Shown: positions 219 through 64,000 of the stretch, piece by piece
How positions within the stretch are numbered: position 1 is the first letter of the stretch
Layout of the letters: every line of letters starts with the position of its first letter
The notes under the pieces: model-generated
What the model saw: only the letters and a program-made list of their open reading frames with translations
Told to the model about the DNA's origin: nothing
Databases searched by the model: none
Assembly (NCBI GenBank): GCA_965178125.1
Contig: OZ237735.1
Span: forward strand, 1,674,001-1,738,000
DNA: 64,000 nt
Direction of reading: 5' to 3'
DNA from: Bilabrum cf. latius
Lineage: Eukaryota
Position numbers and translations under genes: made by a program

Positions 219-3200
219 ATGATTATCCTTCTACTGGCTGGATTTCTGCCTGCAGCTGTCGCTGGCCCGGTGACTGTGACCGAGGTCTCTCCGCGCTACG
301 GCAGTCTTGCTGGCGGACAGTTTGTACAGCTGAATGGCGACAACTTCCCGATCAACTCGTTTGAGGGTCAGACTCTGGTCTTTCTTGGCGAAGAATAGGC
401 TTGCGAAATCGACTGGTACCACACGACAGCAGACAGAATCGTCTGCCAGACTCATGCTGCAGCGCGCTCGGGCATGGCGGAATTCCCGCTGTCAGCGGCG
501 GTGTTCACGGACAACGCGTTCTTTTCCCGGTGCATTAATGATCGATGGCCAGAAAGATGCGAGTACCGCTACACGACGGACGAAACGACTCGAATGCTTC
601 GCAGCTTCGGTACAGGCAGCACAGAAGTGTGGATGGAGACGTCCGATCGCTATGCGAACCAATCAAGGGTACAGGTCACTAGCTCGGCTCATTGGGACAC
701 AGACGATATTGGTTCTGAAGTGTTTGGTAAGACGGCCGTGTCAGTAAGGATGAGCTCAGAGTCTCGCAGCTTCGGGTGCTCAATCGTGGACTCTGCCGGC
801 AACGACATCACCCGAGTTGATTCGAGACTCGGCAGGACGCGATTTATTTGCCAACACCGTATCGAGGATGCTGGAATGTACAACATAACCCTAAAACTGC
901 CGCGGTACGGAGACGCGATCTAGGACCCCGATGCTTTGCGAGTGTCTGCGGCTTCGCCAGTTTCGGAGGGCGCAGATACGACTCCGGTCAAGCTTTACAG
1001 TGTTGCAGCGCATCCTGTTATACATCGAATCAGTGCAAGGGCTAGCTCCCTGGCTGGGGGAGCTGAAATCTCGATCGATGGCGGTGGCTGGTCAGCAGAA
1101 GAGCAGGCAGCGGAAGTACTCGCTGCCGGGCTGCCGTGCACGATTGTTCGCCAGGCAGGCTCTCGAATCACCTGCAGAACCGCTTCATTTCCCGATCTCG
1201 ACTCGAGTTCCAACGGTGCTGCTGGTGGGGCTCCAAGTGAGGCATTCCCGACTCTAGGCGTGTGGTCGCAGGGTCAGGTCGCCGGCGTTGCGCTGGGCGG
1301 CACCTCGGCCGGTGATAATCTTGCAGGAGTGCTGCCAGGGGACGTCCGGCTGTTTGCAGGTGGCCAGGGCGTACTGCAAGAAGTATGGTGGGGCGTTTCC
1401 GGTCCTCCGGGCGGCGACGCCTTCGCTGCCGACAGTGCGTTCGATAGCATGGAAGCAGCGGGTGCACGCCGCAATGCCTCGCTGGAGCCCGTGTTCCCGC
1501 AGGAATGGACCGATGCAGTGGAGTCGGCGCGGCAATCATCGCACGGCTACCAGCTGGCAGTACAGAGGGGCCAGCTGCCTCCAGTTGGACCGCACCCGAA
1601 CGGCTCCGCACAGCTCCCGCCCCGCGAGCCCGATCACGTGGACACGCTGAGATCATTCGAGGCAACGACGAGAGCCCTGTGGGATGAGCATTTCCCTGGA
1701 GTCAGCGATGTGGAGGAAGAATAGTACGGCCTTGGGGACAGCTACTACCAGCGTCTCACCTCGCTGTTCACCCCACCCGTGACGGGCAACTATTCCTTCG
1801 TGCTTGTCTCCGACGATTGGAGCGAGCTGTACATTGCGGGGTGCGCCCAGCCGGGGGTGCTAGGCAGCGATAGGATGGATACATTCAACCTTTCAGCGCC
1901 GGGGCGCCGTGTCGCATGGCTCAGGGGCCGCCTCTCAGACCACATCAACTCCTTCCACCGTGACGGCTCCTTCGAGTCTGCCCCCATCGAGCTGAGTAGA
2001 GGACAGCCGTGCAGGATCACTGCGCTCCACTGGGAAAACAGCGGGGTGGATCACTTGAAGGTGGGCGTGAGGCTGCTGGAAGGGATCCAAGGACTAGACG
2101 AGAACCGCACAGCGGATGCCGTGCAGGACGAGGGCCAGCTGCACGTGAGGTCCGACGCAACCCTTGAGACGTACATAATGGACTACCCAGACCCGCAGCC
2201 AGAGGGGCAGCAGGAGGCGGACCTCGGCGCCGCCGTGGGTGCAGGGTACGCTGCCGTTGAAGATGCGGATGGAGAGACTGCTGCTTCGAGCAGTCCCCTA
2301 TCAGGTCAAGCCCTCTCACAGGACTAGAAAACGGTTGGTGAGTACTTCCGAGTGCACTGGGGCAATCGCACGACTGCACCCATTCGCACTGACGCCGTCA
2401 ACGTGGAGGTTGAGGAGGCGTTCCGCGCTATTCTGCAGGGGCGGTGCGAACGGAGCAGGTGGCACGCCGGCTCGGGCCAGCTCGCGCGCCTCGTCAGGAC
2501 AGAGTACCCTACCGATCCCGATGGCTAGGCCCACGGGGAAGGCGCGGAGGCGCGGCACTCGACCATATCGGATGGGAACGGCGTGCTCTAGGCGTATGAG
2601 ATTGACTCCTTCGAGGGCCTCAGTGACGACACGCGAGGCCTGTGGAGCTGGGGCGACGAGGCTGAAGCCAACGCCGTTGATCCGTTCTGCGGGCAGTTCA
2701 GCATGTTCCTGCCAACAGCGCGTGGACGGGACTTTGAAATGTGGGGTGGCAGGGTGCGTGGGAAGGCAGAGCCCTGGTTCACGGCGTCTGGGTACTCACT
2801 AGACACCTACTAGCACGTTTGTGGAGCGTTCCGAGTGCCTGCTGCCGAACTGGATCACCGCGGTCGATACGAAGAACCGGACACGACGGCGTTCCTGCGT
2901 ATTGACGTGATCGACGGCGCTGTGTCAAGGCCTTCCACTATAACTGGCCTGATTGCACTGCACGACCGCGACTTTGACGTCAGGAAGGCATTTGGCGACA
3001 GTGATCGATTTGATTTCCCAGTTTGGGGGAGGTGGACAAACGCCGTCCGGGCAGATGGAACCTGGCAACACTCATGCTTTCCCTTAGCAAGCGCTGTACG
3101 AAGTGCTCTAACTGGGCCCTCTGCAATGGTGCAAGAGCCGCGGGTAGTGCGGATCGCATTCGACTCACCGTGGTAGTCGAGCACGGAGCAGGACCAGGAG

Positions 3201-6200
3201 CGCCAGCGTGGTCTGCCCAGGTTTGTGGGCGGGCCCCTGTGGGTGGATGAGTTCTCTGTGGTGGCTGGGGGTCCAATTAACGTGACATAGGACCATTCCG
3301 TGCCAAGTGCCCTGGCAGGAGAGTGGCGAGAGTCGACGGAGCAGGGCAAGCAGTACGTTGAATTCGTGGATGTTTCAGCTCTGCAAGACTCAGGTCGCTC
3401 TCGAAGGGAATCGGACGAAGAGGTGCACTTCGAGGACGACGCATTCGTGCCTGCACTGCCCACTTCACTCGCTTAGACGACCTATCCAGCTGCGCTCGCC
3501 TTCTCTAACGTTGGATTGCGGCGTCGCCGCATCCAGGTGCACGCAGCCGGGTGCATGCACGACCTACCACGCATGCGGTTTGAGGCAGTTTCAGTGGAGT
3601 TTGCAGAAGATTTGATCGCGCGGATGGCCCACGGGCGGGCCAGAGGCAAGCCATGGGGCCTTCCGCCGGTCATTCATGCCCTCACAACGGATGCCACGTT
3701 TGGTGAGGATGGAGCACTGCAGCAGCTCAACCATACGGAGGTGGAGGCGCGGAGCATCGTCGATGCCTTGCTATTGCAGGAACAGCTTGCATCCATGAAC
3801 CCGACGTCGGCTGAGTACGGCGAGTTGCTATCGCGGTAGAGCCACGCTGGTAATCTCCTGGATGAGTCCAGCAGCAGGGACAGCAGCAGCCGCAGCCTGC
3901 TGGCACAGAACAGCATGCTCGTTGGCCGCTCGATCTCCGGCATGGAGGCAAGCGCGACTCCGTTTGGAACCACTGATGCTGTGCTTAGAGTGATGGCGGA
4001 GATTGCAGCCGGGGAGAGCCAGGGCAGCACGATCCGTCGTGCTGCCCAAGTGGCAGCGGCGCAGATCCGTGGACTGGCAGCCGGTGGATTCTCCGTGTCC
4101 TGGCGGGATACTGCAGCGCCTCCTCTTGGAGGGTAGTTCAGACTGGCTGCACTTGCCACGCAATGGGATCGCCTCTATCACACGCCGCTGCAGGCGTGGT
4201 AGTGGCGCGAGTACCTCGCGGGTAGAGATGGATCATGGGAGCAGCTAGCCTTCGGACTCACCGTGCAGACGACACGGGAGACTTACGTTTCTGACCTGCT
4301 CGAGCTTATTCGGGCAGGACTGAACGTACAAGACCAGGCTGTATGGCTTTATGAGCTTGTCATCAGGAGCAACGCAACCGTATCGTTGCGCGAGTTGCTG
4401 CAAGGCGGGCAGCTGCGGCCTCATCATCCCGTCAAGCAGTTTGTTGACGCGATGGAGGGCGCACTGGGGAGCTCTGGAATGCTCGATGCAATGGCGGCCT
4501 ACAACGTCTCAGTCCTTGCCACACAGCCGCTTCTCGTAAATGCTTCCACGAGGCTCCTTGAGCTGGCTCTAGGTGAGTCTGGGCCGATCGGACACGGTGT
4601 GCAGCTGCAAGTGGAGCAAGACACATGCTTTTCCAAGACATGGAGGGTTAAATATCTGGGTACGGCATCGGACAGACCAAATCTATACGGGATCGATTGG
4701 GACCTATTGCAGGGCAGGAATCCATCGGTGCACTACTCGGATGAAGTGGATGGCGGTGTGTTTTGGAGACCGATTGCACCCGAGTCTCTACGGGTGCTGC
4801 ATGCCACCCCGCAGGTGACGGTTCGGCATCGCGAATCTGGGCTGTGGGCCGTCTGTGACGGTGACAGGGCTACGGATGAAATTTCAGACGGTGAGGCATC
4901 TGTCCCGCTGTTTGAACTACCAGGTCCCGGCGCGCTTGCATCGCAGGCGCAGGTATCTGGGCCTGCGGCCGCTGCGATGTCGCGTCACGGAGGAGCGTGC
5001 ACGTATGTCTACGCAGCATCGGCAGGCCCCACTGTCGAATCAGTGAGCCCTTCATCGGGCCCAGTCGGCACGGAGATAACCGTATCTGGTTCGCGGTTCG
5101 AGGCCGACGCAAGCGGGGCCGGGAACGAGGTCACGATCGGTGGGGTCTTGTGCAAGCCCTCCGCCGCGTCTACTGCCACCACCATCAAGTGCACGCTGGA
5201 TGCCGTGCAGTCCGCCGGTTAGTATGCCGTTCGCGTTCGTGTTGTGCGGCGGGGTCTAGCAAAAAGCTCCAACGCGACGCACCCGCCCATGTTCAGGCTC
5301 GAAGGTCGCATTGAGAGCATCACCGGCGCCGTGGTCGGGTACGGTGGCGATTTGGACCGTGTAGATGCTGCTGCAACTGGGGATCTGGAGGGTGTCCTGT
5401 CGACAGTCGCGGGCGGACGCCTCTTGACTGTCAGCGGCACTGCATTGCCTGTCCTTGCGCCTGATGCTTCGGGCAAGGAGCTCGTGGCTGGTGCTGAAGA
5501 CGCTCCAGCTGGAAGAGACCGCATCGACGTGCAGCTGGCCATCAGCTTTGATGCGATGGCAGCTGCATTCAGTTCACCACCTGGTAGCGCTCCATCAGTG
5601 CAAGACCGTAGTGCTGCTGCAAGTGCTGCTGGAGTGAATGAAGGAGACTCATTGCGTCTGGCAGTGCCTGTGGTATGGTCGAATGGAACAACAGCATTGC
5701 TGGTGGCACCTGCCCTGCCTGACGCTCTCGCCGCCAGAATGCTTGCGATAGAGGCTTCACCTAGTTTCATGGGCCTCGCTGGAGACCTAGACTTTGTGTC
5801 AACACCTTCCGGAAACGATGCTCGCAATAGCTGGCCGCATCCTTAGGCAGTCACGGTGCGTGCTCCCCCTGCCATTCGCTATCCGGCGGGGCCTGGTGTC
5901 GTGGCAATTACGGATGCCTCAATGGACGTTGTGAGTGGTGCCGGCGGCGAAACCTTGCAACTGACCATCAAGGAGTCCCTGGAAACTGCGAGTAGCAGCT
6001 TGACAGCCGAGCCATTCGTGTACTAGTGGCTTGAAGCCGCCCACTCGACTTGCGCATGCATGGGCTCCGATTTCTGGGAGTCCCAGTATGCTGGTGATTA
6101 CGGGTCATTGCCCCCTTCCATTTGCGGGGCTGGAGTGTTCGGCGGGTCTCACGTGTCTGGGGTCGGATTCGGTGGCAGAGCCTCGTGGGTCGATTCGGCA

Positions 6201-9200
6201 GCAAGTCCGTGCCTTGGCATCATCGGAGGTGGCGGGCCTGGCACCAGGCAGTGCGAAGCGGCTGCTGACCGGTTTGGAGCCAGAGCTCTGCTCAAACGCC
6301 ATCGAGCCGCGAGAAGTAATCTCCAGGAGGCAATCGCTGCTCGGGACCAGGGCGCAAGTGCCAACTAGGACCATGTGCTCGTACGCGGCATCGATTCTGC
6401 GGCGCTGGGATGCTCTTCTTACCGTGCTGACTTTGGGATGTCTTCCATGCTGGTCACAACGATGCTTGGCCCCTTGCAACTATCTACTGCGGGAATTCAG
6501 CAAGCTTTCGGAACGGAGGAAGAAGGAATCGGGGCAGATGATGAGACTACAGCGGATGGAACCGAAGTGCCAGCACTTGGCTTGACGACACCCAGCGGGA
6601 GCGTCGTAGTCGGTGGAGCCGCATGCCGCATCATCTCATCGAACACGACAGTGGTATCGTGCATGGTACCGCCTCACCCTGAACCTGCTTCCAAAGTGCT
6701 TCCGGTATCGCTGTACCTCCCTGGCGTTGGTGTTGTGCCCCGGAGACAAGAGCGCACACCGATTGCGTCGGAATCCCGCACGCAATCAGAGGATGAGATC
6801 CCCGGTCCTTCTACCGTGCTGCCTGGCCTTATGACCAGCTTGTCCGTGTCTGCCGTCAGCCCGTCATCAGGTGCGGTAGCGGGTGGCACCGTGGTGACGA
6901 TTATTGGGACCGGCTTCATGGGGGGCTACTCGGAAACGACCGCCAACGATTCGATCTTCGATTTTTCCTCGGAAGAATGCCAGCATTTGCAGGTCACAAT
7001 TGGTCCGACTCTTCTGTGCCAGGTGCAGAGCTGCTCCGAGGACAAAATCACCTGCGTCACGGAGAACCGAGCTGGCGTACCGGCGGCTGTGGACAACTCA
7101 GGAAGGAACACCGAGTTCGGTCTGGGCTACCAGTTCTCATCTCGAGAGGTCCGGGTGGAGGCTGGTGGATTCCTGCGAATCGCATGGACAGCGACACAGT
7201 ACACCGGCACGAAGCACGGTTTCACGCTAGCCACAAGAGAGGCGCCAAGAGAGCCAGGGCTACCTGCTCCTGCAGGATTTGCTTCGCCTTTCTCCCGCGA
7301 TGGGTCTTTTTGGCAGTGGTTTCCGTCGCCTGGCACGTACAACATTACCAGTAGCTCATATGGCTGGCTAAATTTCTCAGGGACTGTCAATGTACTGCCC
7401 TTGGCGGCAAGTTCACTGCCAGTTCGCGTTGTTGTTGCAGGGGTAGAGGCGAAGCATGCTGCAGGATCGATCGAAAATGCGACCGACGTGTAGGTTGCCA
7501 GTGTATCGTCAAGGTGTGCTGCGGTCCATGGAACTGGTAATGGCAGAGATAACTCGACCCGCCTCTCATTCACGTATGACCCTGACATGTCACCAACTTT
7601 GCAGTCAGTTGGATTTGAAGGACTGTTGCGGTCCAATGCATCAGCGGCCGCAAAGCGACTGCTTAGCCGGGAATTCGATGATGAAGACCTAAACAGGTGG
7701 AGAGGATGTGGCAGAGGCCCCCATCGGCCAGCTGCCTGTCCGTTCCTACGAATCTGCGCAGCGGACCCTTGGCTCGCGCCACAGCAGTGCCGGGGCCCGC
7801 GGGGATCGATCCTGCCCACTACATGGCGAATGGACGCAACGCCTGATGGTATGGGCAGATAGTCTTCAGACGAGAGTCTCTACTCGACTGCATTCTCATC
7901 CAGCACTCCGTGTGAGGCGTTGTTCCTCAGGGGAAAGAGGCTCGTGCAGCTGAGCCCAGCAGCAGCGGCCAACGCTGAGGCCAGTGCAGTCACGATCGGA
8001 GGGTTTAAGCAGTCTTCGAGCATCAACCTGCGAGACGCGCTCGAGAGCGGTGATGCCCTGTCTGGGCCTCGAGTATAGCTCAGACGTATAAAGGCAGGCT
8101 ACGACGAGGCCATCGTTCGGGGGGGCATGTACGGCAACCACGGGTACACTCAACCGTTCCAATTTGAAGGACATCAGTTTGACCTAGGCATGCATGGCAA
8201 TGCGACTGCGGACGCCCTTGTTGCTGGTGCCTCAACCATCTGCGCTCATATCGACGTTGCTTTCCGTTGGCCCTCCGCTAGTCAGCTCGGCACCGACGCC
8301 GATGTTCTCGTGCGCTGCGCGCTGCCTTGTGAGGCGGCTGCCCAAGCAGCTGCCTCGCAGCTGTCCAGCTCAGAGAGGTAGGTTGTGCAAGCCGCCTTCC
8401 CAAGCAGCCCATTACCGGCTGGTTCGTATTAGGTGCGGCTACAGGTTGCCAGCGCCCGTGACCTGATCGGAGCTTGCCCGACCTCGCCGGAGATAGCCAC
8501 AAGCACTGGGCTTGCTTCGATTGAGAACGGTTGGGGCTCTGACGTCGTCACCGTGGTGCCCGTTGTGCGAGGCACGGCTCCTCTATCCATGGGAGGGCGC
8601 ATGAATGCTGCAAGGGGAATGCGGACATAGGATTTAAAAGAAGGATTGGACGCTGCCATGGTCCAAGCCGCATGCGCGCTGCTCGGAGAAGGGGCGCCTG
8701 CGTTCGCTTGTGCTGAATCATCAGACTGGCAGAGCGCACGCTCCAGCAATTACCGGTCACTTGTGCTTACACTTTCGCCTGAGTCGAGCTACTCTGGTGG
8801 AATCACATCTGGTTCAGCTGCAGGCGGGCAGCTATTGCTATTGAGTGGGTCTGGCTTTTCGACTCGCATCTATGACACAGACGATGATGGTGACGGACTG
8901 CCGGATTCTTCGGCTCTGGGACACGGCGGTGCATCAGGTCGCGTGCGGCTTGTACCACGCGCAGATTCGCAGCTGGCTGCGGGAGACGGCAGCATGGTCA
9001 AGGATCTGACTGTCGATGGCAATGAGGTCAGAATTGGGACTGCACCGTGTCGCTTGGTCGGTGCAACTTCAGGTGGTCTCCTTTGCATCACCCAGCCGCC
9101 TCGTGATAATGGTGCCGTGGCTGCCCTGATGGAGTCTGCCCCTGTTGGTCTGTGGAGGTTCCACGATTGCGGCGTCAGCCATGAAATCCGTGGTTTGGCC

Positions 9201-12200
9201 CAGTTCGACGATGAGCTTGCCCTGGCACACCAGCACACGGCAGCATCTATAGCAATCGGAAGAGTAGGTGGCAGCAGCACGACTGGAGTGGGTGGCTCGC
9301 TTGAGAAGAAGACCGGTGCTAAGTGCGGCTCGTGTCGGCTCGGTTGCCCGACCGCGGGGTCCTCTTTGGGCTCTGGCAGGGGTGGGACCATTCACTACTA
9401 CTATGGTGGGAGTGGCGTGCGCGATTCCAATCCGCGCGGTGGCATACTGCTGCAGGAGCGGGGCGTGTCTGCCAAACTCGGATTCGGTGCATCCGACGTA
9501 TCGGTGTCATTTGATGGAGGATCCTTTGCCCGAGTCATGCAGGCAAGCACGCTCACACAAGATTCTATCCCTACAGCGCCGCTGAGCCTATTAGGTGCGG
9601 ATCCTTTTGGTGCGCTCCTCGCTTTGGAATCAATCAACGGATCGGTGCCGCACCCCAAGACCAACTTCGAAACTGCCGAGCTTGTGAACATGGCCAAGTT
9701 GCTCAAGGGTGTCGGTTACCAGGCAAGTAATGCCACGGCAGAATCAGCTCGAGATGCAGCAGTCTCACGCTGGGTGAACACTGGGGCCGAGCCGCGATAC
9801 CCTGACGTATGCGCTTCGTGGCTGGCGCGTAATGGTTCATTCTCTGCCCAGGCCTGGGTGAAGCCTCGCCATTTCAATGCGACGATGGATGCTAGGCTTG
9901 CACACGAGCTGATCAACGCTTCCGAGCGGCTGATCTCATCTGCAGGTCAATCTCCATCTGCCTCAGGAGTTGGCACCATCGTGGATGCCGCCGAATCGGC
10001 CGCCTTGGCTGCTGGTGACGCCAATTAGGACGGCCATGCAGACATGTGGCGATTTGTCCTCGGTAACATGCCTGTGTCTCGTCACGGCCCTTCGCGCGGT
10101 TATGCCATCTGGCTGGACCCAGCTGGGTACGCAGAGGCATGGCTCGGGCTCGGAGTGGATCCTGAAGCGCTTATGAAGGATGGCAAAGCGACGAGCGACG
10201 GTGCTGACGTGCTAGTCACTTGCTCAGCTGCAGCAGCAGCCATCGGAAGTACCGTGAACCAATTGGCTCTCGGTGGAATTGGGGGCTCTGTGTAGCACAC
10301 AAACTAGCTAAAACAGCTGGCGTCCAGCTACGCTGCCCGGCTGGTCTCGAACGGCAAGGCACAGCAAGCTGCCGAGAGTGTTGCTGCCGGACTTTTTCAT
10401 CCGTGGACTGTATGCGAGGAGGGCGGAGCGGCACTGCTGCGTATCAGTGGGACTCACTATGCGCCGGCGCAGCGGAGGTGGATGTTCGCTGCGGTGCACA
10501 GCCAGACGCCTGTCTCTGTGGGAAGCGATTTCTCTCTGCTGACCCTGAGCTATCACGATGGCTCTGCAGCTACCCGAGCCGAGACCCAGTTCCCGTGGGG
10601 CCGCGAGCAAGCGCCTCAGCCGAGCCTGCCCGAGCTGACGCTACTGGTGGATGGCACGGCCGCCGGAGCTATCCAACTTGATCCGGAGTTTGACCAAGTT
10701 TACATGCCAGCTTGCGAGGGGCAACTGTTCAATTCCGTGCGACCCGCCGCGCAGGATCCGAACAATGCCCCAGACCCCTCAGGCACGGAAGGTGACCTTT
10801 ACATTGGGTAGATTGGGCCGGCTTTCGAACTTCGCGTTGATATTCTGTAGCACGTGGTCGCAGGGGCAGGCATCGCTCCAGATGCGGCGATGGGGTCCTT
10901 CTGGCAGTCAGGAGAGGCAGCCGCTCGATTCCACAGAGTTGGCAACTACTCCGGCCACATCGCAGAGGTCGCCATCTTTGACCACGCCTTGGCCGCAGGA
11001 GTATCCAGGCGCGTGGCGGCTTTGGCTAGATCTGAGCTGCAGTACATAAACGTTCGAAGTGGTCCGTTTTCGGCAGAGTGTGCCGTGCCCGTGCCCAAGG
11101 CTGGCCTAACGGTCAGCTCCATCGATGATGTGGTAGCATCTGCAGCCCACGCAGCTGACTGGGTCGGATCAGGTTGTGTGTATCAGCACAGCATCGCACG
11201 TACGCCGGTAGTAAGGTCTGTCGCACCAATCACAGGATCTGGCGCAACCTCGGCCCCTCTCTCGCAGCGGACGGTGTTTATAACTGTCGATTCGCTCCCG
11301 ATTCCGCTTGAGAACGTGAACAACGAGACTGTGCGTGTGTCCCTCGTGAACCCGGATGCTGGTCCCTCGTATGACCTTGGGTGCAATGTTATTGGTGCTG
11401 CAGAGCTTCATCGCGATGCGACACCCTCTTGGCGGGTGCTTCTTGCGGATGACCTGGATGACAGTGATTTTGCAGCCTATGTTCAAAGCAACCTGGGTCT
11501 AATGACGGGCCCAACTTCAACGCTGAACTCGGGCTAGTACCTGCGGCGGACATGGAGCGGAACGAATGGCTCCGCGTTGAGGGCTCCTAGTGGATACTTT
11601 CATTCGGCAGTTCGTCGCACTGCAGTTGCATGCATCGCCGAGCCTGGCGTGGGAGCATGGTATGACGTCCACTTGAGCGTGAACGGCGTCGGTGCAGCAG
11701 CGACAGTGTGCGCCGAAGATCAGTTCTCAGGGTCTGGCCGTGCCGATGGTGTTACTGTCGCTTTGAATCGTCTCAAAGCAGCCGAACGCACAATTTAGTA
11801 GCTCGGTGGCAGCGAGGCTGGTGCAGGCGTTGCTCTGGCCGATCAGCCAAGGGGGGGCCTCGGCTCTCACTACAGCTCGGCAGTTTTTTCCGGCTGTCGG
11901 ACACAAACTCCGCCCGTTTGGCCGAATGAGTTCTTTGGAGATACGGTTCTGCCGATTGACCTGATCCGATCAGTGAGGTACACTCTTGGCTCTCTCGATG
12001 AGGTGACTTCCCCCGCACAGTGGAGGCAGCAGATCGTGATCAGTGACGTGTCTCCCTCAGAAGTCAGTCTCATGGGTGGTTCGACATTGACCATTAAGGG
12101 ATCCGGCTTCACAGACGACTACCGGGAGGCCACAGTCCTGCTTGGAAGGCGCTTTGACTGCCCGGTCATAAGCGCAGCACCGACCGAGATAAAGTGTGTG

Positions 12201-41461: not shown

Positions 41462-41565
41462 AAAAAGCTGATAATGGGCAACTTCGAAGCAGTGATTCCT
41501 TCATCATCACATCATTGCCACGGGTAGCAACGGCTCGAAGGGTGAAATGTCTGCACCATTTTAAG
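41462..41565. promoter_or_regulatory. Probable bidirectional promoter region (104 bp)
   Basis: AT-richer spacer between divergent predicted start codons; positional inference only. Confidence 0.4.
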
Positions 41566-44114: not shown

Positions 44115-44133
44115 GGGGGGGGGGGGGGGGGGG
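44115..44133 (+). repeat. Poly-G tract (19 G) followed by further G runs
   Basis: Read directly; lies between two convergent stop codons. Confidence 0.9.
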
Positions 44134-44393
44134 TTGGGGTGTTGGTGGGGTGGCAGCAAGCAGACTCGAATGACGGGCCTTTGAACCGAGCAGAAACACC
44201 GTATCAATCCCCACGCAAGCAATTTAACACGGCGGCCTCTTTCTGAACCTTAATCCAGTTGTGAGACAGCCCAGCCACACGTACCCTTGCCCACAGCCAA
44301 TACCACGCGTGTGCCGATTGCATAGCCAAGGGAACCACATCAAATAACGCGACTCAATTCACCCGTGTTCCGGAATGTAGATCCGGCTTGGAT

Positions 44394-46532: not shown

Positions 46533-46826
46533 GCCTGTTTTTGTTCCGGAACCGAGACCTAAATGCGTGTGCCCCTTGGGATGTACGTCTCGGCTGTTGT
46601 CCTCCTTCCCTCCGTATATAGAACTTTGAATCTTGAGGTGGAGAAATTCTACGATAGCAGTGCCCAAAGGTTTGTCTTCAGGACAGGAAAGCGAGTGCAA
46701 CATAACACGTCGGCTTCGTGCAACTGGCGACGAACCACATTTTCGAACGTTCGGCACGTTCGGCGCAGCAGGCGATTGCAATGCCTGATTACAGAGCAGT
46801 TTCCACATTCCTTCATTTGAAAACAA

Positions 46827-51395: not shown

Positions 51396-51804
51396 TTTCG
51401 TTTGATTGATCAGCGCAAAGGTACCAAGAACTGCAAATCAACGCCACTGTAGATGCTAAAAGCCTGACAAATGGTGATGGCGTGTTCTGGGCGAACGAAT
51501 CCTCTCAAAAATGCGCGGTGTGCAGAGAAGGACTCTGCGAATCAACGCAACGAGAATGATCTACAGGTTAAACTCGTGATTTGTGAAGGAGGCGTGGCCG
51601 TCGCAAGCTTAGACAGTGTGCCGAGTTTGCGCCGAAATGCCAAGACGATTTCGATGGTCGCACGGGCAGACCCGACAGGGCCGAATTTTCGAAGGGGGGA
51701 TTCGCTACGAACCTGGATAGGTTGAGACCCGAGATCAAAAGAATTAGCCAACTGCACGATCGAGATGACATGCAAAAAGCCAACACCTTCCCCTTCTCCG
51801 ATGT

Positions 51805-53764: not shown

Positions 53765-54145
53765 GATTGGTCCTATCTGCTCTGGCTGATGACGCAGCGA
53801 CGTTCTGCCGAGAAAGCCTGTTTGTGCACGCTACAAAGATCCAGCCTGGACTCAAGCACGTGAGACCGCAATGGAGTGGTTAAGAAGATCAGATGCTAAA
53901 AATACGCGCGTGCTGACTGCACCGGACCGAGAGCTGAGCTAAGATGCCACAACGACAGTACCAGGAGTGCACCGCAGTCACACGAGTGTCAACACATGGT
54001 CCAGCTGCCAGCTTGCCAGCCAGCCGGCTCCCGGCACCAAGGTCCACTTTCCAAACTGACTAGAAGCAACCTCAGATCTGCTACCTGACGGATCCCCGCC
54101 CTCGCGCACAACTTCCTCTCTCACCTTGACTATTGAGGAGCACGA

Positions 54146-55594
54146 TCAGAACACCCCGGGGATGACCCTGTACGGTACCTTCTTGCAGTACATGTCCCAG
54201 TACTTTCCGTACTTCTCCTTGCAGCGCTGCTCGTCCCTCACCGCTCGGTCCAGCAGCAGCAGCACCAGGAAGCCCACGTAGAAGAAGGGGACGGCCTTGT
54301 CGGTCTGCATGGGCACGGACCACGCCAGCGCCGCGGCCACCTCGAACACGTAGTGCAGGTGCCTCGCGTGTGCCCATAGGTGTGAGTGAAGGAGGGTGCT
54401 CTTGCGAGTGCCCTTCGCCGTCTTGTACTCGGCCCGGATGACCTTCATGGGAGACCCGAAGATGAGACCCTTCCCGTCCTGGCGCCTGCACTGCTGCCTC
54501 TGCCGGTCGGCCTCGTAGTTGAGGTAGATCATGAGGAAGCCGAAGAGAGCCAGGGCGTACATCTGCATGTCCGTGAGGTCGCCCCTGTAGGAGCACCCTC
54601 CCTCGGGGCTGAAACCCTCCCTGTCGGCGTCGTTGCACTGGAAGGCAATGAACCCGCTGGCCACCTGGTAGAAGGAGGGCACCCACACGAGGCAGCCCCA
54701 GCAGATGTAGAAGCCGGCCCGGTCGTGCTGGATGTCCATCGAGTTAAAGTAGCCGGTCTCCCACTGGAAAAACTTGCCCACGTAGATGAGGTTGAGCACC
54801 ACGTTCACCACGGCGGCGTTGGACACCGACCCGTTCCTCTCGTAGTTGAAGGCGAGGGCAGCAATGGGGATCATGGCCCACAGCATCATCCCGAAGCGGC
54901 AGTTCGTCATCTGCTTCACGTCCCATCCGAAGATCCGCGGGTACAGCTCGGTACCCCAGTAGAAGTCCACCACCCAGTTGCCGCTGCTGCTGGCGTCTGG
55001 CCCGCTCGGCATGTTGAGGCCCTTCCACGTCAAGAAGGCGCAAAACACGAGCGCGAAGAGGCACAGCACCACGATCCAGATGCGCCAAACCTTAATGATG
55101 TCGCTCATTTGCCACGGGGAGTTCTCGCCCAGCAGCAAGGGGACGCCCACGAACGTGAAGATCGTGATCCAGTACGACAAAACGCCGTTGTCAGTGTAGA
55201 CGGGGCGATGGCCGTTGATGGTGGGGTTGGCTACAAACTTGGGGCCCGGCACCAGCCGAACCAGGGCTGCTTGAAACGCAACGAAGCCGATCAGGAGGGT
55301 CAATGCTTTCCACACCAGCTACTCGTTGCTAAAGTCCGCTACAGAGGCTTCGTACAGCCACGACATGCCACCCATCACACCATTCACCAGCTCCATTGAG
55401 AAAATATACGACAGATCAAATGAGATGATCTTGTTCCACATGTCGTCCGGCATGATGTTCGCCTGGTTGGACGTCATGCATGTCACGAGCGCAATCGCGA
55501 CTGGTGGGGGTGCAAGAGTTAGAAAAAGGGGCCCAATTGACTCCCTCGCCCCGAACAGGCCGCTACCTGATTTGTCAGACCCTTCAGACCACAT
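54146..55594 (-). CDS. DHCR7: 7-dehydrocholesterol reductase (ERG4/ERG24 family, DWF5-like), ~482 aa (1 in-frame TAG)
   Basis: Motifs DFYWGTELYPRI, DVKQMTNCRFGMM, YFNSMDIQHDRAGFYICWGCLVWVP and RDEQRCKEKYGKYW. The N-terminal ORF 55319-55597 joins via TAG 55319-55321. Ends in TGA. Confidence 0.9.
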
Positions 55595-55788
55595 CAAATA
55601 TCAATTTGTGGGTAACAAGACAGCAGGATCGTGGGCTTCTCAAAACAGCAAACAAACGGGAATAAAATGCCTCAGTCGTCAAAACGATGCTCCGATCGGT
55701 AATCGTTGCTAAAATTATTGTTCTGACAATTCCGCAGCTGGTAAATCAGTGGGCTACAGCAATTGCCCTCCCTAAGTTATTTTTGAAT
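55595..55788. promoter_or_regulatory. Probable bidirectional promoter region (194 bp)
   Basis: AT-rich spacer between DHCR7 and the divergent Ser/Arg-rich gene; positional inference only. Confidence 0.4.
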
Positions 55789-58700
55789 ATGGAAAATGGA
55801 CTCATGGATTCTGCAGGCCCAGGTGGAGCTTATGCACAACCGCTGGAACCGCTTCGGTCTGGCCAACTCAACTTTCTCAGAAGTGCAAGTCGCCCGATAG
55901 ACGTAGAAATGGAGCCTGCTTCTCTCGATAACGATAACTGCTTGGTGAATTCTAGAGATAGCGATGACTTCCAGGGGCACGGTCCGATGTCCTATGACGG
56001 TCCTGCAGCTTCCCATTCGCTTGAGGGGGACCAGTAGACAAGCATCTCTCAGAGATCTCGCCGTAGAATTCACATCTACAATGCGAGTGGATTTGGAACA
56101 CAGGCAGGAAGTAGGCGACGGGTTCCTCGGCTTGGGCCTGCCGATTCTCCCACCCAACGCCACCTTCGTGGGCGAACAGACCCCGACAGCGATCATTCTC
56201 CAAGAGAGGAGCGGGGTGGTCGGCCGCAGGCCCATACGCCTGATAGTGTGGCAGCAGGGCTGGGGTTGGAAGGCGCCCACGCAAGCCCAGGGCCCCACCC
56301 GTTCCAGCCAAGCCGGCCTCAAGTCGGCCAGACCTCCGCAGGCAGCAGCCCCGGAGACCCCGGCCAGCCCGTGCCGTCTGTCGTTATGAGCAGAGCTGGC
56401 TATGGAAATGCGCCGTCAACCTCCGGCTCTGTGCTCACGAAAGGCAAGCCCCCGATTTCGTCCAGCCGCACTCGACCCGGGATTGGCGCAGGTGCAGGAA
56501 CAGACAGGGCCAGGAGACACCGCAGAGAGGGCCGTCAGCGCAGGGCTGGGCCCAGAGCAGGGGGCACGTTCGACGCCCAAGCTGCATCATTGGCAGGTCT
56601 GTCGTCTTCTTCCTCAGACGAAGACGAAGAGCCCTTTTCACGGGCAGGCACTCGCGATCAATCGTCCTCGGCCTCGAGGGGGGCACCAGGAGTGTCCTCC
56701 AGCCGACGCCCGTAGACAGGCACAATGCATGGGCCTCACCGTCAGAGCCACGCACGCAAGGCAAACCCAGCAAGAAGATCCAGAAAATCCTCCCGTAGTA
56801 GCACGCAGAGTTGGAGCCGACACTCATCGGGATACACTTCGTCTAGTGACAGCGACATCAATGCATCGACCAGCCTGCCAGTCGGGCACCGCTCTAGCCG
56901 AGCCGGTGGCTAGCAAGCTGGGAGTAAGCCAAGTCGAGCCAGACAAGAAAACAACGATACCTTCACCCCCCCTCACATAAGAAGTAGAGCCGGCCTAGCC
57001 CTCGCTCGCTCTGCTGTTCGTGAGGCTGCCAGCGCACTCAGAAGCAGCCAGTCCAAGTTGCAGGCGGCCATCGCTGGTGGATTTGGTGCCGTGCCTGCAC
57101 ATCTCGATTCGCGCATGAATGGAGGCAGTAGCAGCGACAGTGATACAAAAGAGTTTCCTCCCAGTAGGCGAGTCGATGCCTCGGGAAGGAAGCGCGGGAC
57201 TGCCTCCAGGAGCCTGCTGTACCCTGCGCCTGGCCACCTGCAGCACCCCGAGAAGCAGGCCAGCGCTCTGAATGACGCGTCCAGCTAGTACAGTGCCTCA
57301 TCATCAGACGATGACTTGCTCTCCACCAGGCGTATTCCACCAGGAATGATGGCTATATGCAGGGCTCTGCGAGCCACGGTGAAGGAGGCCCGGCTCGCTA
57401 CCTCCCCGAACGGTCGAGCTACAGACCCGAGGAAGATTGCAACGGGCGGTACCGGTTCCAAGGGTCGTGGTAGTGGTGCACCAGCGTGGCCAAGTGGAAG
57501 GATCACCCATCTGGCCTCTCAAGCAAGTCGCAGAGCGCAGACGCAAGGGCGGAGACTGAGCTTCAGTCGGCGAGGGTCCAGGTCGTCAGCGCTGGACGCC
57601 GCTTCTGCAGCTGCCGTTCCGGGGGGCAATCAGACCAATAAAGACGTTCGAGGTGCCCACAGCGTTTCTAACCGTAGACAAGCATTGCTGCAGAGCCACA
57701 AGAGCGCCGCCCTTTCATTCAGCGAGAGCTCAAGCGAGGAGGATGAGGCAGGACTCGGGCTGCCGCCGCGCAGGGGAGCACGGCAGAAATCCGCTCCGGC
57801 TCCAGAGCAACCTCTTGTGATCTCAGACCCTCCAACTAGGGCCGCAAGCCCCGTTGCAGACGATCCTATCGCGCATTTAGCCATGTCATCATCCGCAAAG
57901 CAGCACGCGATGTCGTACCGCCGGCGTCTCCGGCAGCGCAGGCCAAGTGCGAGCATAGCGGACAAGAGACCCACCCGCAAATCACCATTGTCAAGGGTTG
58001 TATCCATAGTATCGTGCAGCTCCTCAGAAAGCGACGGTGGCAAGCAACCTTCACCTGGATAGATGCGAGCTCGGCGGGAGGGGCTGTCGGTACCGGTCCG
58101 AGGCGCACCGGAGTCCAACCAAGCGTTGAGGCAAGCCAAACGATTAGGCTTGGGTAGGGAGCAGCACAGGACCCCGGGCCCTCCGCTAGCTCTTCTGCGA
58201 CCACAGCTTGGCAGTCGCGCCTCACGTATTCAATCTGTCGGCTATAGGGTAGCTTGCTCCGTGGTGGACACCGACTCGGACGACAGCAGCGGTTCGGACG
58301 AACAGGTGGTCATTTCACAAGCGGCAGGACACAGAAATGAGACAAAACGCGCGAAGGATCAAAGCCAGCACCGCCTTGCAAGTCGAACTTCGAAGAGATC
58401 GCCACCCCCCAAGATTGAGAGAGCAGCTTCCGCGGTCGCGTCCAGCGTGCTGGATCTTTCCTCGTCTGAAGATGAATCCAATAGCCCGAAGAACTCGGCG
58501 GCCCCTCGCGAGGCCCAAAGCAGCCGTACCAGGTATAACTCGAAGCCGCACGTTGCCAAGACCCGAGCCGTCCCCCCGTTGCGACTGGGCACTACCATAC
58601 GACCGAGGGAGTCGCCGCCCCCAAAGCACAGTGCAAGAAAACGTTCCGCGGCATCTTCATCCTCCAACAAGTCGTCATCATCATCTTCGGGCGCTAGTTT

Positions 58701-59358
58701 TGGGCATCAAAAGAAATCGCGGTCAGAGGTTAGACGAAGCTCGGCTGCAGGGAGTACAATAAGCTCGATACTAGAAGAAGGAGAAGACGTTGCAGTTGTA
58801 TACATCTCGCCAGACTACTCGGATGCGGGCGGCTCTCAGAAGGAGGCCGAGCGCACTATCGACACTGGCCGGATGCTCCGCGCAGGGAGCGCTTTTGATC
58901 GGGCACTGCACGGGAAGGCCTACGAAGAACGAGAAGCGGCTGCCCTCCAAAGAATTCTTGCTCAGTAGCGAGCAAAAGTCAACATTGAGCGCAAGCCAGG
59001 CGGGAGGCCCCCACCTCGCAGATTTGCAGTGCCTCCACGGAGTGAACCACGCCGAACAGGCCAGCCACCACCGCGTGTTCCCTTGTTTGGCGGTGTGCAG
59101 AGGCGAGGATCGCGGGCTAACGGAGCAAAGCGCATCGGCGCCCCTCGAATGACGCTGGCAGAGCGCTCCAGGATCGACGTTGCAGGGTCAGACAGCGAAT
59201 CATCGTCATCAGAGAGCGATACCGAGAGAGATTATGTCGCTGCAAGAAGAGATCCAGTGCGGCAGGCACAAGTCAAACGAGCACCGGTGGTACGGCGCAG
59301 TGCGCTCGGACGGAAGGTGGCCAGTCTAGACAGCTCATCCTCGGATGAATCAGACTGA
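55789..59358 (+). CDS. Hypothetical Ser/Arg-rich low-complexity protein, ~1,189 aa (6 in-frame TAG)
   Basis: ORFs 55687, 56248, 56725, 57058, 57316, 58063 and 59029 share a frame and are joined only by TAG. Recurrent SSS(D/E)(D/E) tracts; TGA at 59356-59358. The start could alternatively be ATG 55687. Confidence 0.7.
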
Positions 59359-59554: not shown

Positions 59555-61894
59555 TCAAGCCGATGACTTCCTTCGCATCAGAGACCGCGCTTGGCGCTCC
59601 ACGAAAGGCAGCACTCGTCTCCACATCGCCCACTGCCTGACTCGCTCCGCAACGTCTCTTGGACCCGACAGTGCAGAAGCAGCGTCCCGGTCCATCGCAT
59701 CGGCAGCTTTATCGCTGTCCGACCTGGGCCATATGGAGTGGAGTACGTCGAATGGACCGTCGTGAAGCAGGCGAACTAGTGGCAACGATGTTGCAGATCC
59801 AGATGCCCAGCTCTAGTGCGCCTGCAGAGCCTCCGCATGACGCCTACCTAACACGCTGGTGGGAATAGCCCCAGATGATGTTGCAGTTTCTGATACAGCG
59901 CGCCCTTTGGTTGCCGGCGTAGACTCGGTCCGAGCTACCTCTGGAGCCCATTCACCCAGCAGCGACCGCCGCACGTTTAGCCCCGACCAAAACACCCACA
60001 TTGCGCGGCTATACTGCTCCTTATCAAGGACTGCGCCAGAAGCGCTCGCACTCTATCCATGGCTGCCAGCAGCAGCTTCCTGACGCCCCAGCTCAACCAG
60101 GGCGCCATCAAGTACTCTTGAGCAGTGGCAGTCCAGCCCGTAGTATGCGACAACCGCGTCGAATCTGGGGGTACGTACGGGTGCAGAGTGTGGCCCACTG
60201 GCAGCCATTGAAGCTGCCTGAGCTGACGGTGCTTTTGCAGACGCAGAACTGCGACTTCCTTGCTGGCTGACTGCGTCGCCTGCGCCAGTCCAGTCGTAAC
60301 CTGCCTCTACACTAATCCTGACTCCGCCACCTAGATCGACCACACGTGGAAGCTGCACAACACCAAGCCTATCGGTCGTCCACGACTCGATAGAATCGGA
60401 CCATGAGGTCGAGCAACCAGCATTGGTGGCAGCGCCCCAGCCGGACAGTCGCTACAGCGCTGTGCACCACAAATCTCGAGAGTCTCTGCCACCTGCAGCA
60501 CTCTCATGGCGAACCCACGGAGGCGGCTCGAGAGACAGCCGTAATCCGTCTAACGTAGTTTCTGAGCTCTTGCTTGCACGTGCAGGCTCTGGCAGTCTGC
60601 ATGCTAAACGCAGCTGCCAAGTCCTTTGCGCCCCTGCCAGCATGGCCATATCTCCCCGCATGCCACCAAGCGCTCTGCGGAGCAAAAGAGCGAAACACAG
60701 AGCTGCCCCTGTAGTATCTCTGCCAGACCTGACAGTGCCACTTCGAGGCAAAGACTTTGCGTCAGCATCCTCCGCTTGAGCAGGAGCTTGCTATGTGGTA
60801 CTCGATGCGCTTATGCTTGAAGATGAGCTAGCGCTTGCCACCGCTGGCTGTTGAAGGCGTGGAATCACTGATGGCAACGACTTCAGGGCATGACCTGACG
60901 ATGCTATCGATGCCGACCTTGTCAGGTCACCGCTGGCGGCAGTACTCGGTTTAAGCAACCCAAAGCGGTGCTGCAGAGCCACCAAGCTCACATTGCAAAG
61001 TGACCTGGACCGCCCCTCCGCAACTTGCATCGGTTCGTCTGCTGTAGATTTCTGTGGCAGCTCCGCAGAGCAAGGATTAGATTCTTCGTTATACAGCGTG
61101 TTGATGCGAGTAGCATCTTCGGCTGCTGGATACCGATTGATGGGGTCATGCACCGGGCAACTCGCAGCGCTGTGAGCCAGCCCAGCCAGCAAAGGTAAAA
61201 AGCATTCTGCTACAGGCTTGTAGCCTTTCGAAATGGCAGCAGCGAGCCACACTGCAGCCGTCATGCCGGGCTGTGCGAGCACGTCTTCGATGCAAACGAT
61301 TGGCAGCCGCCGAGATAGCTCTAGAATCATCGGGTCACCGTGCTGCCACATTTCGTAGACGCATCTAGATGCTGCAGAGGACTAGCCTCTACGTATACAT
61401 TTCTGTAGAAGGCTTTTCAGTTGTCCGGAGCTGAACGTAGTTGAAGCTGATCCAGCGTGTGGCTCGGACACGCTGCGCGCTGGGCAGTCAGTCCACAGAT
61501 TCACGACTGCACCTTTTCTTGTTCCTGCAATTTTAGCGCCTAGCTTCATTTTCGATGACCACTTGGCCTGACCGGCAGAAGCCGGCAGAAGCACTGTCGT
61601 TGCTTTCCCATGTAAAAACTAGAGACCGAAATAGAATTCTGTAGGCTTCTCTCTCGCTGCTTCCATCATAATAGCGAACGCCCCTGGGCTTGAACTAGAT
61701 GATGATGAAACACGGGCATTCTTCGTCCTCCTCGGGACGTGTGCATCGGAATGAGAAGCCTCGCTGTCGCTCTCCAAAACATCCACCACCTCTGTTGATC
61801 TGCCAGGCAGAGCACCACCTGACCTATGGCGCTTTCGCCCAGGCCTTGGCAACTTAGCAAATGTATTTGTTTTACGCACGACGAATGCATCCAT
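59555..61894 (-). CDS. Conserved hypothetical protein with an MgsA/RarA C-terminal-like motif set, ~779 aa (6 in-frame TAG)
   Basis: Seven in-frame ORFs joined by TAG. Motifs LKSLLQKCIRRG, ELSRRLPIVCIED, LLRRALGGMRGDMAML, GLDCHCS and MWVFWSGLNVR. Ends in TGA. The family resemblance is from recall and was not searched. Confidence 0.65.
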
Positions 61895-62004
61895 TATTTA
61901 GGCCGAGCTGTGGACGAAACGGCACAGTTGCACCTAGGTTCCGGAACCGGAACCAGGAACACTCGGGCATTTCAAACACAATTTTTTGAACTTGAAACCA
62001 ATAT

Positions 62005-64000
62005 TCAAGATACCGATAGTAGCCTCGGCGAATCTCGATCAATCCACTCATCGTGAGACTTCGGCCAGCCTGGGAAATGGAGACGAACTAACCCATTTTC
62101 CAGCACCGCCACAACCACGACGACGAACACCTCGCCAAGTTTCCCAAGCAGTCCGATTCGTTGCCTTTTTCTGATGGTCTACCTGGCAGATGAACTAAGA
62201 GCGCCCCCGGCACTTGCTACTACGTTTGAGTCAATCCCACTGCTGGCGTTGTGGCCGCTGCTGCCCGATGCGACAGCACCCTGCACAGCCCCAGAGTGTC
62301 CCCGGGCCAGCTGTGAGGACGAGGCACCAGAGCTGAAAGCACGTTTCCCCGCCTGACTCGGCACAGACGTAGGCGTAGCACTCTTGCTGTTCGGTTTCGA
62401 CACAGGCAGGTCCGGGTCAAGGAGGCAAGGTACGATCATCCCCTCGGCACTCAGCCGGCACTGCCCGTCCTCCAGACCGCTGCGAGCCATGTAATTTTCC
62501 TTCTCCTCGAGGTAGCCGCAAAGAGCATACTCTGGATGCCCAGGCACGGGTGGAGGCAATTCCACAGCGGGCTGCGATGCCATCAGCGCAGCTAGTGACA
62601 CTGGTTGAGAGATGGAAGCACCAGACGATGCAGCCGCTGAGCCGTAAGAAGCTGACGAGGCAGCTGAAGAGCTCGAGCTGGACGACGTCGGCTTTGAATC
62701 AGACCCAGCTCTGTTCCGCAAGGGTTTTGATAGGGACTCAGTCGCATCTGCTTTGCTCCCAACGGCGCTCAAACGTGCAGAGCTCCCCTGTGAGCCAGCC
62801 GACACGTGATCCAGCGTGCCAGGCCGTTGCCCTGCACCCACCCGAGAACGCTTGGAAGCACGGCCAGAGCCATAGTCCCCCGATCCTATCTGCTCAGTCG
62901 ATGGCGCACCGACAGTTGAATAGCTGGAATGCACCGCCTCGCTCGCCGTCGCTGCAATTCCAGCTAAACGCAAGCGCATCAGTTGTTTCTACTCAGAGTG
63001 GGTCGCCACCGATGATGTACCCACGCTACCAGGTGGTGTATTCGTTTCACGGACTTGCACGCAGTGACCTGCATTTGACAAAAGTACTGCCTTGGGCATG
63101 CCATGCGAGGGCCCTACATCAATGCTGCGTGCACTGCCTAGAGACTGTTCTGTGGCCTCAACAGCTGGATGGTGCCTGGCGAGCTAGACTTGGCTCAGCA
63201 TCATATCTCTGCTTCGCTTTGATCCTGTAAGTCTTTCACCTGCTTGCACACGAAAGAGATGCCCGCTCACTGAGCGAGACGCCTAAGAAGACGTGGGATG
63301 TCCCGTCGAAGTGCGCAGGCTCCGAAGCAGGTGTGCTGCCCTGCTGGCCACAGCAGCCAGCCCTGAAGATGGGCTGTAGATCTGCATTCGAGACTAACGC
63401 TGCGGCTGTTTGGGGCCCAGCATGTTTCTGTAAGTCGGGATGGTCCCATTGAGTGAGCCAGCCGATACCGAAGGGTCCTACTAGCTTGCCCGTCCGAGGT
63501 TGTGTCGGGCCCTCCAGTCGTTCCCTCCATGCATTTGTAGCCTCTGGTCAAAGCATAATACGCGTGCCCCTTGAGCAGAGGGCTACATCCCATTCTGGGC
63601 GCGTGTGTGAGTATCACGGGTCGTTGATGATGCGAGGCGAGTGCAAGAAGATATCGCTGCGGCGGATTCGGCTAGATCCCAAGACATGGCACTCTTGGGC
63701 GGCGTCTCTTGGAAACTGTCAGTCGAATGGCCCGATGCCTTGCTGCTCGCTTGGCTTCTGTCGTCGCCAGCCGATCCGTGTGCAGCCAGCCGCAGCCGCC
63801 TTTTCCGTTCGAACAGCACCATGGCCCGCTCCAGGGCAGGCACGTCAATGCGCACATTGTCGGGGCGGCAGTTGCAAGCAGTCTTCAGTGCTGCTCGACC
63901 CCACGGGAGCCAGTCCCACGTGGCAAAATTCACCGCTTCTGCCACGTTCACTCCGGTATTGAACCCGGAATGGAACGCAGCTGGGTGCGTTATGACATAC
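62005..64000 (-). CDS. KDM4/JMJD2-like JmjC histone demethylase, 3' part (5' end outside window), with C-terminal Tudor-knot/chromo-barrel-like domain (8 in-frame TAG)
   Basis: [30 protein letters not shown]...[11 protein letters not shown] matches the end of a KDM4-type JmjC domain. The frame continues across TAGs to [23 protein letters not shown] and TGA at 62005-62007. Confidence 0.8.

Follow-up and report, generated by a model that had tools for sequence, protein, structure and literature searches.

Does UAG still terminate translation in the nuclear genes of Bilabrum cf. latius? The question is raised by a 64,000-nucleotide stretch of its genome (GenBank assembly GCA_965178125.1, contig OZ237735.1, positions 1,674,001 to 1,738,000 of the forward strand; hereafter the window), throughout which an earlier note, made from the letters alone, had read UAG as a sense codon. 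We consider it likely that UAG is an ordinary sense codon here, most likely for glutamine (Gln) in the manner of NCBI genetic code table 15, with UGA as the main stop codon and UAA still a stop. The sense reading is supported by protein domains that run across TAG codons, by spliced transcripts that keep their TAGs, and by two sets of relatives with in-frame TAGs, and the claim of the earlier note therefore stands.

In-frame TAG codons across the window

Under the standard stops, the window splits into 135 open reading frames (ORFs) of at least 150 codons; once TAG is read through and only TAA and TGA count as stops, gene-sized frames appear on both strands, 16 in all. A recount of these frames gave the same figures as first reported: 14 of the 16 genes contain in-frame TAGs, 124 altogether, of which 123 come from the ORF or spliced models and one from exon 3 of a sulfatase gene; 120 lie after the first ATG, and the genes without in-frame TAG are the ORF at 24975-26294 and a PWP1-like gene. 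No internal TAA or TGA was found in any of the 16 frames, again as originally stated. Fourteen genes end in TGA, two in TAA and none in TAG, a tally in which a TAG stop could not show since the ORFs were delimited by TAA and TGA. UAG makes up about 0.63% of codons and, if read as Gln, about 14% of Gln-type codons. At the CAA:CAG ratio of 211:522, about 48 in-frame TAAs (119 × 211/522) would be expected beside 119 TAGs and none is observed, which indicates that only UAG is reassigned; a code of the NCBI table 6 type, with both UAA and UAG read as Gln, was accordingly rejected (in-frame TAA 0, TAG 124).

The frame at 84..23645 (+) holds a giant, single-exon gene resembling fibrocystin-L (PKHD1L1), whose 7,853 codons include 55 in-frame TAGs, 54 of them after the ATG, and no TAA or TGA. 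The remaining two frames of the same interval contain 59 TAA and 337 TGA in 15,706 codons (2.5%), so that about 198 TAA or TGA codons would be expected in 84..23645 (+) if it were non-coding. TAG, by comparison, is as frequent in frame (0.70%) as off frame (0.63%), and is thus not avoided in the giant frame. Pfam matches along the frame comprise TIG in eight stretches, two matches to G8, one to the CEMIP beta-helix and a weak one to PA14; among named homologues the closest are fibrocystin-L proteins of animals, names that give no taxonomic placement. The exon spans about 23.4 kb and encodes about 7,800 residues, close to double the length of the animal homologues found (about 4,000-4,600 residues).

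Many of the in-frame TAGs in the window lie inside Pfam matches, and domains are continuous across TAG in the reductase, MFS, Trm5, fatty-acid hydroxylase and fibrocystin-like genes. TAG 35794 separates the TYW2 N-terminal domain (TYW2_N_2, residues 449-509) from TRM5-TYW2_MTfase (609-673), placing Pfam domains on both sides of the codon and the methyltransferase domain 3' of it, as the sequence had been read at first. Similarly, TAG 45111, said to lie between the two halves of the MFS transporter, falls within the MFS_1 match (residues 30-449) and is the only TAG of its gene. The FA_hydroxylase match contains TAGs 37604 and 37538, both between the His boxes, in line with what had been claimed of a 'desaturase', a gene that is better described as a member of the fatty-acid hydroxylase superfamily. 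In the 7-dehydrocholesterol reductase gene, TAG 55319 is inside the Pfam match and the TGA falls at the normal C-terminus of the family (432 of 432), so that no earlier stop is needed in this gene.

Spliced transcripts retain TAG

We compared positions 44001-64000 of the window with contigs from four sequencing runs (X1, X5, X6 and X7). A single 130-kb contig of the DNA run X1 spans the interval with no joints. The contigs of X5, X6 and X7, which come from two studies, are gene-sized and skip 46057-46154, 46346-46454, 50924-51256 and 52794-52911; these segments read CT..AC on the plus strand, and hence GT..AG for minus-strand genes, and all four are retained in X1. Because X5, X6 and X7 skip GT..AG introns that X1 keeps, their contigs derive from spliced RNA. 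Introns taken from the transcript contigs measure 98, 109, 118 and 333 nucleotides (nt), and a fifth, of 195 nt, was deduced from contig pieces.

No differing letter is listed in any run: every listed piece has 0 other letters, and no gaps or joints occur at TAG sites among the pieces listed. Twenty-six of the 33 ORF-listed TAG sites in 44001-64000 fall within the contig pieces listed, and 7 fall outside those listed. All eight TAGs of a JmjC/MBT gene are carried by X5, X6 and X7 contigs with 0 other letters, as is the reductase by contigs of X5 and X6 and the MFS gene by contigs of X5 and X7; an X5 contig covering 46800-50923 of a Ser/Gly-rich gene, also with 0 other letters, is joined on to 51257. 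Transcripts without UAG had been named in the earlier note as the result that would speak against it; the spliced contigs carry the TAGs unchanged, and at the covered sites this rules out edited RNA, micro-splicing or a faulty assembly.

X5, X6 and X7 bear the names of two other organisms and come from studies separate from the one behind the DNA runs; their spliced contigs show no listed difference from the window. The window organism may be present in them as a co-cultured associate, as a contaminant or under a different name.

Environmental relatives with in-frame TAG

A search with the reductase returned one protein at 98% and one at 85% identity, the next all being at most 50% identical. 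The 85% identical reductase sits on a metagenome contig, L001 (7,916 bp, 55% GC, about 76% DNA identity to the window), which corresponds over 1-7916 to window 52912-59358 in the same order and orientation, with a Ser/Arg-rich ORF (gene A) divergent from the reductase and the sulfatase downstream. The L001 reductase (4607-6250) occupies a frame with seven TAGs, five of them in the coding sequence (CDS), and ends in TGA; the 1,315-codon ORF of this contig, a weak homologue of gene A, contains 18 TAGs, denser than in the window, and also ends in TGA. A standard-code prediction from L001, P0003, begins after one TAG and ends at another, and the conserved C-terminus runs on in frame. For the giant gene, ten standard-code ORF fragments from relatives are 88-94% identical to the window; six end exactly at a window TAG, three end opposite CAG, GAG and ATC (one each), and one has an unaligned tail. 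All database entries for proteins of the relatives are fragments delimited by TAG. In-frame TAG common to separate organisms is not as expected of stop codons or errors.

No DNA of relatives was recovered when metagenomes were scanned with part of the giant protein, or when genome contigs and viral contigs were scanned with the reductase alignment. TAG positions differ between relatives that are 76-94% identical, with an apparently rapid turnover of TAG sites; of the 8 positions compared in the reductase and sulfatase, the window and L001 share none.

The amino acid at UAG

Across 23 pairs of a TAG and its counterpart in a relative, the partner is Gln in 14, serine (Ser) in 4, Glu in 1 and Leu in none. 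The L001 pairs were read straight from DNA and so form the unbiased set. Here, opposite seven TAGs that L001 carries in its reductase and sulfatase genes, the window has CAG (four), CAA (one) and AAC (two), with no Ser codon among them; the window reductase TAG faces L001 AAG; and one site of gene A, in a locally well-aligned block, places a window TAG opposite an L001 Gln, for a total of Gln 6, Asn 2 and Lys 1 (n=9). A further 14 window TAGs lie within the 88-94% identical fragments of close relatives, a biased set (see below), opposite Gln at eight sites, Ser at four, Tyr at one and Glu at one. As controls in the same alignments, Gln stands opposite CAG in 69 of 75 cases and Ser opposite TCG in 45 of 50. 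BLOSUM62 sums over the 23 pairs are 72 for Gln, 32 for Glu, 18 for Lys and 16 for Ser. At two columns rich in Glu among homologues, giant residue 4993 (Glu 98, Gln 10) and reductase column 429, an L001 TAG (Glu 83, Gln 31, no Ser), the nearest relative has Gln. The composition of the residues adjoining TAG did not discriminate between amino acids. Judged by these alignments, UAG probably stands for glutamine.

Under Gln, 6 of the 14 TAG sites in close relatives are non-synonymous, compared with about 8% of CAG sites, an excess for which relaxed sites, young codons or mixed decoding may be considered. The TAG codons may be young and situated at relaxed sites. About 1,160 of the 7,853 positions of the giant frame align to at least 30 homologues, as do 6 of its 55 TAGs; TAG occupies unusually unconserved positions, and the six deep columns favour no residue.

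Several observations weigh against UAG as a sense codon for Gln. The RNA label of the runs is a software guess, with X5 flagged 'probably DNA', and the assignment to RNA comes from the splice joints; TAG terminators are undetectable in 16 genes whose ends were set by TAA and TGA; and tRNA and Rfam scans found no tRNA in the window, L001 or L002. Gene A is of low complexity and only 28.8% identical to its L001 counterpart, and 20 of its 21 TAG rows were dropped, with Gln in two of them. The standard-code fragments span only sites where the relative lacks TAG, which biases the 14-site set, and Ser stands opposite 4 of these 14 TAGs (giant residues 1031, 1981, 4843 and 5479; window 3174, 6024, 14610 and 16518), above a simple rate prediction under Gln. 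The window reductase TAG is in a column with Pro in 88 of 120 homologues, in a poorly aligned stretch. At the six deep columns, the summed log-odds are 1.4 bits for Glu, 0.6 for Ser, 0.0 for Arg and -1.1 for Gln, and when sets of six true columns were resampled, scores as low as those of the TAG columns came up in 2.6% of sets for Gln, 8.2% for Ser, 7.2% for Lys and 0.7% for Glu.

Other meanings of UAG

UAG could have a dual meaning, sense within genes and stop near some 3' ends, which would add to the Gln reading and which we regard as improbable. Context-dependent reading as sense or stop occurs in Condylostoma and Blastocrithidia. Setting the ORF ends by TAA and TGA would hide an upstream TAG stop, for example TAG 44075, which lies four codons before a TGA, and TAG is somewhat rarer late in genes, with counts per successive decile of CDS length of 15, 19, 9, 11, 17, 13, 12, 6, 11 and 6. 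Every decile, the last included, nevertheless contains TAG; the base 3' of it shows no preference (G 38, C 32, A 28, T 21); and the reductase TGA coincides with the end of the Pfam profile. In Iotanema, moreover, UAG was an obvious terminator in none of 730 transcripts (PMC5304391).

Serine at UAG, delivered by a tRNA-Ser(CUA) as in Scotinosphaera, is the main rival to Gln because of the Ser partners at 4 of 14 sites in the 88-94% identical relatives and because of that precedent (PMC8271138); seryl-tRNA synthetase ignores the anticodon. The deep columns also score Ser above Gln, in bits as in resampling, and one L001 reductase TAG column has Ser in 83 of 118 homologues. The well-aligned L001 pairs point the other way, with Ser in 0 of 9 and CAG or CAA opposite 5 of the 7 reductase and sulfatase TAGs, and another L001 TAG column, 429, lacks Ser altogether. 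Ser would require a Ser-to-Gln replacement in 8 of the 14 close-relative pairs, its BLOSUM62 sum is 16 against 72, and the window reductase stands apart from the plant clade in our tree (see below), all of which makes this alternative doubtful at best.

Another residue (Glu, Lys, Leu, Tyr or the like), or ambiguous reading by more than one tRNA, is very unlikely. Glu leads the deep-column score, the two Glu-rich columns both contain TAG, the partners (Gln, Ser, Asn, Lys, Tyr and Glu) match no single residue perfectly, and codes with UAG as Glu or Leu exist (PMC11687900). However, the nearest relative has Gln and not Glu at both of those columns, Glu is the partner in 1 of the 23 close pairs with a BLOSUM62 sum of 32 against 72, and only 0.7% of resampled sets scored as low for Glu. 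Among 5,000 resampled sets for each residue, none scored as low for Leu, Tyr, Trp, Asn, Gly or Asp; Leu, Tyr and Trp were rejected on this basis, Leu also being absent from the 23 close pairs.

We give almost no credence to the notion that the TAGs are never translated, because of RNA editing, tiny introns, pseudogenes or mis-assembly. The 7 sites outside the transcript pieces listed, and the giant gene, which lies beyond the compared region, leave it some room. Spliced contigs from three runs and two studies, by contrast, keep the TAGs with no gaps or joints at them, the frames of relatives are open across their own TAGs and some TAG positions are shared, and the window frames combine 124 TAGs, some within Pfam matches, with no TAA or TGA. 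Pyrrolysine is unlikely, given a codon that makes up 0.63% of codons across unrelated eukaryotic genes and that stands opposite Gln codons in relatives.

A possible decoding mechanism

Because UAA remains a stop, the decoder of UAG should have the anticodon CUA, most simply in a mutated tRNA-Gln(CUG). UAG would then be decoded by a tRNA-Gln whose anticodon, CUA, is one base from CUG, and eRF1 would have lost recognition of UAG and kept that of UAA and UGA. Changes in the eRF1 N-domain that weaken UAG recognition, for example in the GTS motif as in Iotanema, would be expected of a code of the table 15 type. The code change probably predates the split of Bilabrum cf. latius from its environmental relatives. 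The same argument from tRNA(CUA) and eRF1 was made for Iotanema by Panek et al. in 2017 (PMC5304391).

Gene content of the window

Table 1. Genes of the window, with coordinates, distinguishing features, in-frame TAG codons and terminal stop.
Feature	Coordinates	Strand	Features	In-frame TAG	Stop
Fibrocystin-L (PKHD1L1)-like gene	219..23645	+	Single exon; open frame from 84, first ATG 219	55	TGA
ORF	24975..26294	+	No Pfam family	None	TGA
PWP1-like WD40 gene	26409..28350	-	Pfam WD40; Atlas matches are periodic tryptophan protein 1 clusters	None	TGA
Ala/Glu-rich coiled-coil-like ORF	28509..31220	-	No Pfam family	4	TAA
ORF	31259..34120	+	No Pfam family	9 (8 past first ATG)	TGA
Trm5/TYW2-type tRNA methyltransferase	33982..36885	+		34564, 34612, 35794, 36064, 36205	TGA
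Fatty-acid hydroxylase/sterol desaturase superfamily gene	37044..38063	-	Pfam FA_hydroxylase, E 5.5e-11, residues 133-269	37604, 37538	TGA
ORF	38402..41500	-	No Pfam family	9	TAA
Lys/Arg/Glu-rich ORF	41621..44089	+	No Pfam family	7, last 44075, 4 codons before TGA	TGA
MFS sugar-transporter-like gene	44180..46684 (transcript); listed 44394-46151	-	Pfam Sugar_tr, MFS_1; introns 46057-46154, 46346-46454	45111	TGA at 44394
Ser/Gly-rich gene	46800..51300	-	No Pfam family; ORF 46827-50993; intron 50924-51256	10	
Sulfatase	51773..53769	-	Pfam Sulfatase; exons 53769-52912, 52793-52748, 52552-51773; ATG 53764	51924	TGA at 51807
7-Dehydrocholesterol reductase (ERG4/ERG24 family)	54146..55600	-	Pfam E 7.2e-51, profile positions 47-432 of 432	55319	TGA
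Ser/Arg-rich ORF (gene A)	55666..59358	+	No Pfam family; weak homologue on L001	6	TGA
ORF	59555..61897	-	No Pfam family	6	TGA
JmjC + MBT gene, 3' part, runs off window	62005..63999	-	Pfam MBT; JmjC below cut-off	8	TGA

GC content is 57-65% across the window (4-kb windows). Spacers between frames are as short as 39-121 bp (26294/26409, 31220/31259, 41500/41621 and 55600/55666), in convergent as well as divergent pairs, and the genome appears compact despite very large genes. Low-complexity tracts rich in Ala, Ser and Gly are common in most of the genes, and runs of a Gly-Ala dipeptide repeat (GAGAGAGA...) occur in the ORF at 24975-26294 (+) and at the C-terminus of the PWP1-like gene, at 26409-26480 (-).

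The sole TAG of the PWP1-like gene (28304) lies inside a GTAAGT..TTACAG intron, so that the CDS is free of TAG; the Atlas search confirmed PWP1 and gave no useful taxonomy. The sulfatase model is backed by spliced contigs of X6 and X7. This gene, at 51.8-53.8 kb, was also considered as the fatty-acid hydroxylase or 'desaturase', an assignment rejected on its Pfam match.

Lineage and significance

The genes, PWP1 and Trm5 among them, are eukaryotic and nuclear and contain spliceosomal introns. As the earlier note had it, the window does not look like that of a ciliate: its GC content is high, one DNA contig of 130 kb spans it, one exon reaches 23 kb, and its GT..AG introns measure 98-333 nt. 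Ciliate genomes generally differ in these features. A quick maximum-likelihood phylogeny of 120 reductases, which rests on one gene and has a long branch (1.54), joins the window and L001 sequences (SH-aLRT, the Shimodaira-Hasegawa-like approximate likelihood ratio test, 100) within an 8-row group (SH-aLRT 96). Besides unnamed sequences, this group includes a clade of four rows, among them the representative of a cluster carrying Cafeteria sequences; it lies apart from plants, ochrophytes and chlorarachniophytes. An affinity near Cafeteria, the one hint of where the organism belongs, is thus no more than a lead from this gene tree.

Literature searches, whose scope leaves out most subscription journals and supplements, turned up no reassigned UAG among stramenopiles or in any other protist that is GC-rich and not a ciliate. 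Given that scope and DNA runs as recent as 2025, the code may already have been described, or a description may be awaiting publication. We put at about even the chances that the window represents an independent and unpublished origin of a UAG-only code with UAG as Gln, in an aerobic protist lineage outside the ciliates that has a GC-rich genome and may belong to the bigyran stramenopiles, near bicosoecids, shared by at least two further environmental species, with UGA as the main stop and a code that is either young or costly.

If this is true, UGA as the main terminator runs against the usual link of stop codon reassignment with AT-rich genomes, and TAG would occupy unusually unconstrained sites with quick turnover between close relatives. 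Because TAG positions differ between relatives that are 76-94% identical, the case would show how a newly captured codon spreads. A further GC-rich case would be an independent replicate for how eRF1 drops UAG and keeps UAA and UGA, and would let the tRNA(CUA) be sought in a real genome; such a tRNA was not obtainable for Iotanema or the rhizarian when PMC5304391 was written. Standard-code gene callers fragment these genes, so assemblies of this lineage need re-annotation with TAG as sense. Interest would be greater if lineage placement, tRNA and eRF1 data confirmed an independent origin.

Comparison with known codes

UAG and UAA are almost always reassigned together, and few nuclear lineages are reported to separate them (PMC11687900 and PMC5304391). 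UAG-only codes listed by McGowan et al. in 2024 are those of a rhizarian (Leu), Iotanema (Gln) and Scotinosphaera (Ser), together with the ciliates Protocruzia tuzeti, Hartmannula sinica and Trochilia petrani (Gln) and phyllopharyngean metagenome-assembled genomes (Leu); the same list includes the ciliate PL0344, with UAA as Lys and UAG as Glu, and suppressor tRNA(CUA) genes have been found in two ciliate genomes with UAG as Leu (PMC11687900). The known cases given in the earlier note, Iotanema, a rhizarian and some ciliates, hold, and Scotinosphaera and several ciliates have to be added to them (PMC11687900).

Codes of the table 6 type, known from many ciliates, hexamitid diplomonads, Dasycladales and other ulvophytes, Streblomastix and Amoeboaphelidium (PMC11687900), likewise turn a stop into Gln, presumably through anticodon mutants of tRNA-Gln, but reassign UAA as well, which in the window never occurs in frame and ends two genes. 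In the rhizarian exLh, also a non-ciliate protist, UAG is decoupled from UAA but means Leu (PMC5304391), a residue excluded here. Scotinosphaera (Ulvophyceae), described by Li et al. in 2021, resembles the window as a non-ciliate in which UAG alone has changed, with UAA and UGA as stops, and its UAG residue is the second commonest TAG partner here; its TAGs stand at conserved Ser (TCC/TCG) positions (PMC8271138), however, whereas none of the nine L001 pairs is Ser, and the window reductase does not group with plants. The UAG-only ciliates also change UAG alone, to Gln in three cases, but prefer UAA as their stop (PMC11687900), where the window genes mostly use UGA.

The closest parallel is Iotanema spirale, which has likewise reassigned UAG and no other stop, probably as Gln; its reading frames are free of internal UAA and UGA, and UAG was not seen at the end of any gene (PMC5304391). 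Gln dominated about 41% of its conserved UAG columns, near the value for ordinary Gln codons (PMC5304391), so that the weak Gln signal of our deep columns has a precedent. Iotanema, unlike the window organism, is an anaerobic metamonad known from a transcriptome, with UAA as its main stop (PMC5304391); here UGA ends 14 of 16 genes at a GC content of 57-65%, oxygen-dependent enzymes (7-dehydrocholesterol reductase and fatty-acid hydroxylase) are encoded, and the reductase falls with the Cafeteria clade. The two codes may have had independent origins. The code of the window works like that of Iotanema and table 15, and sets itself apart by its GC-rich genome and by UGA as the main stop.

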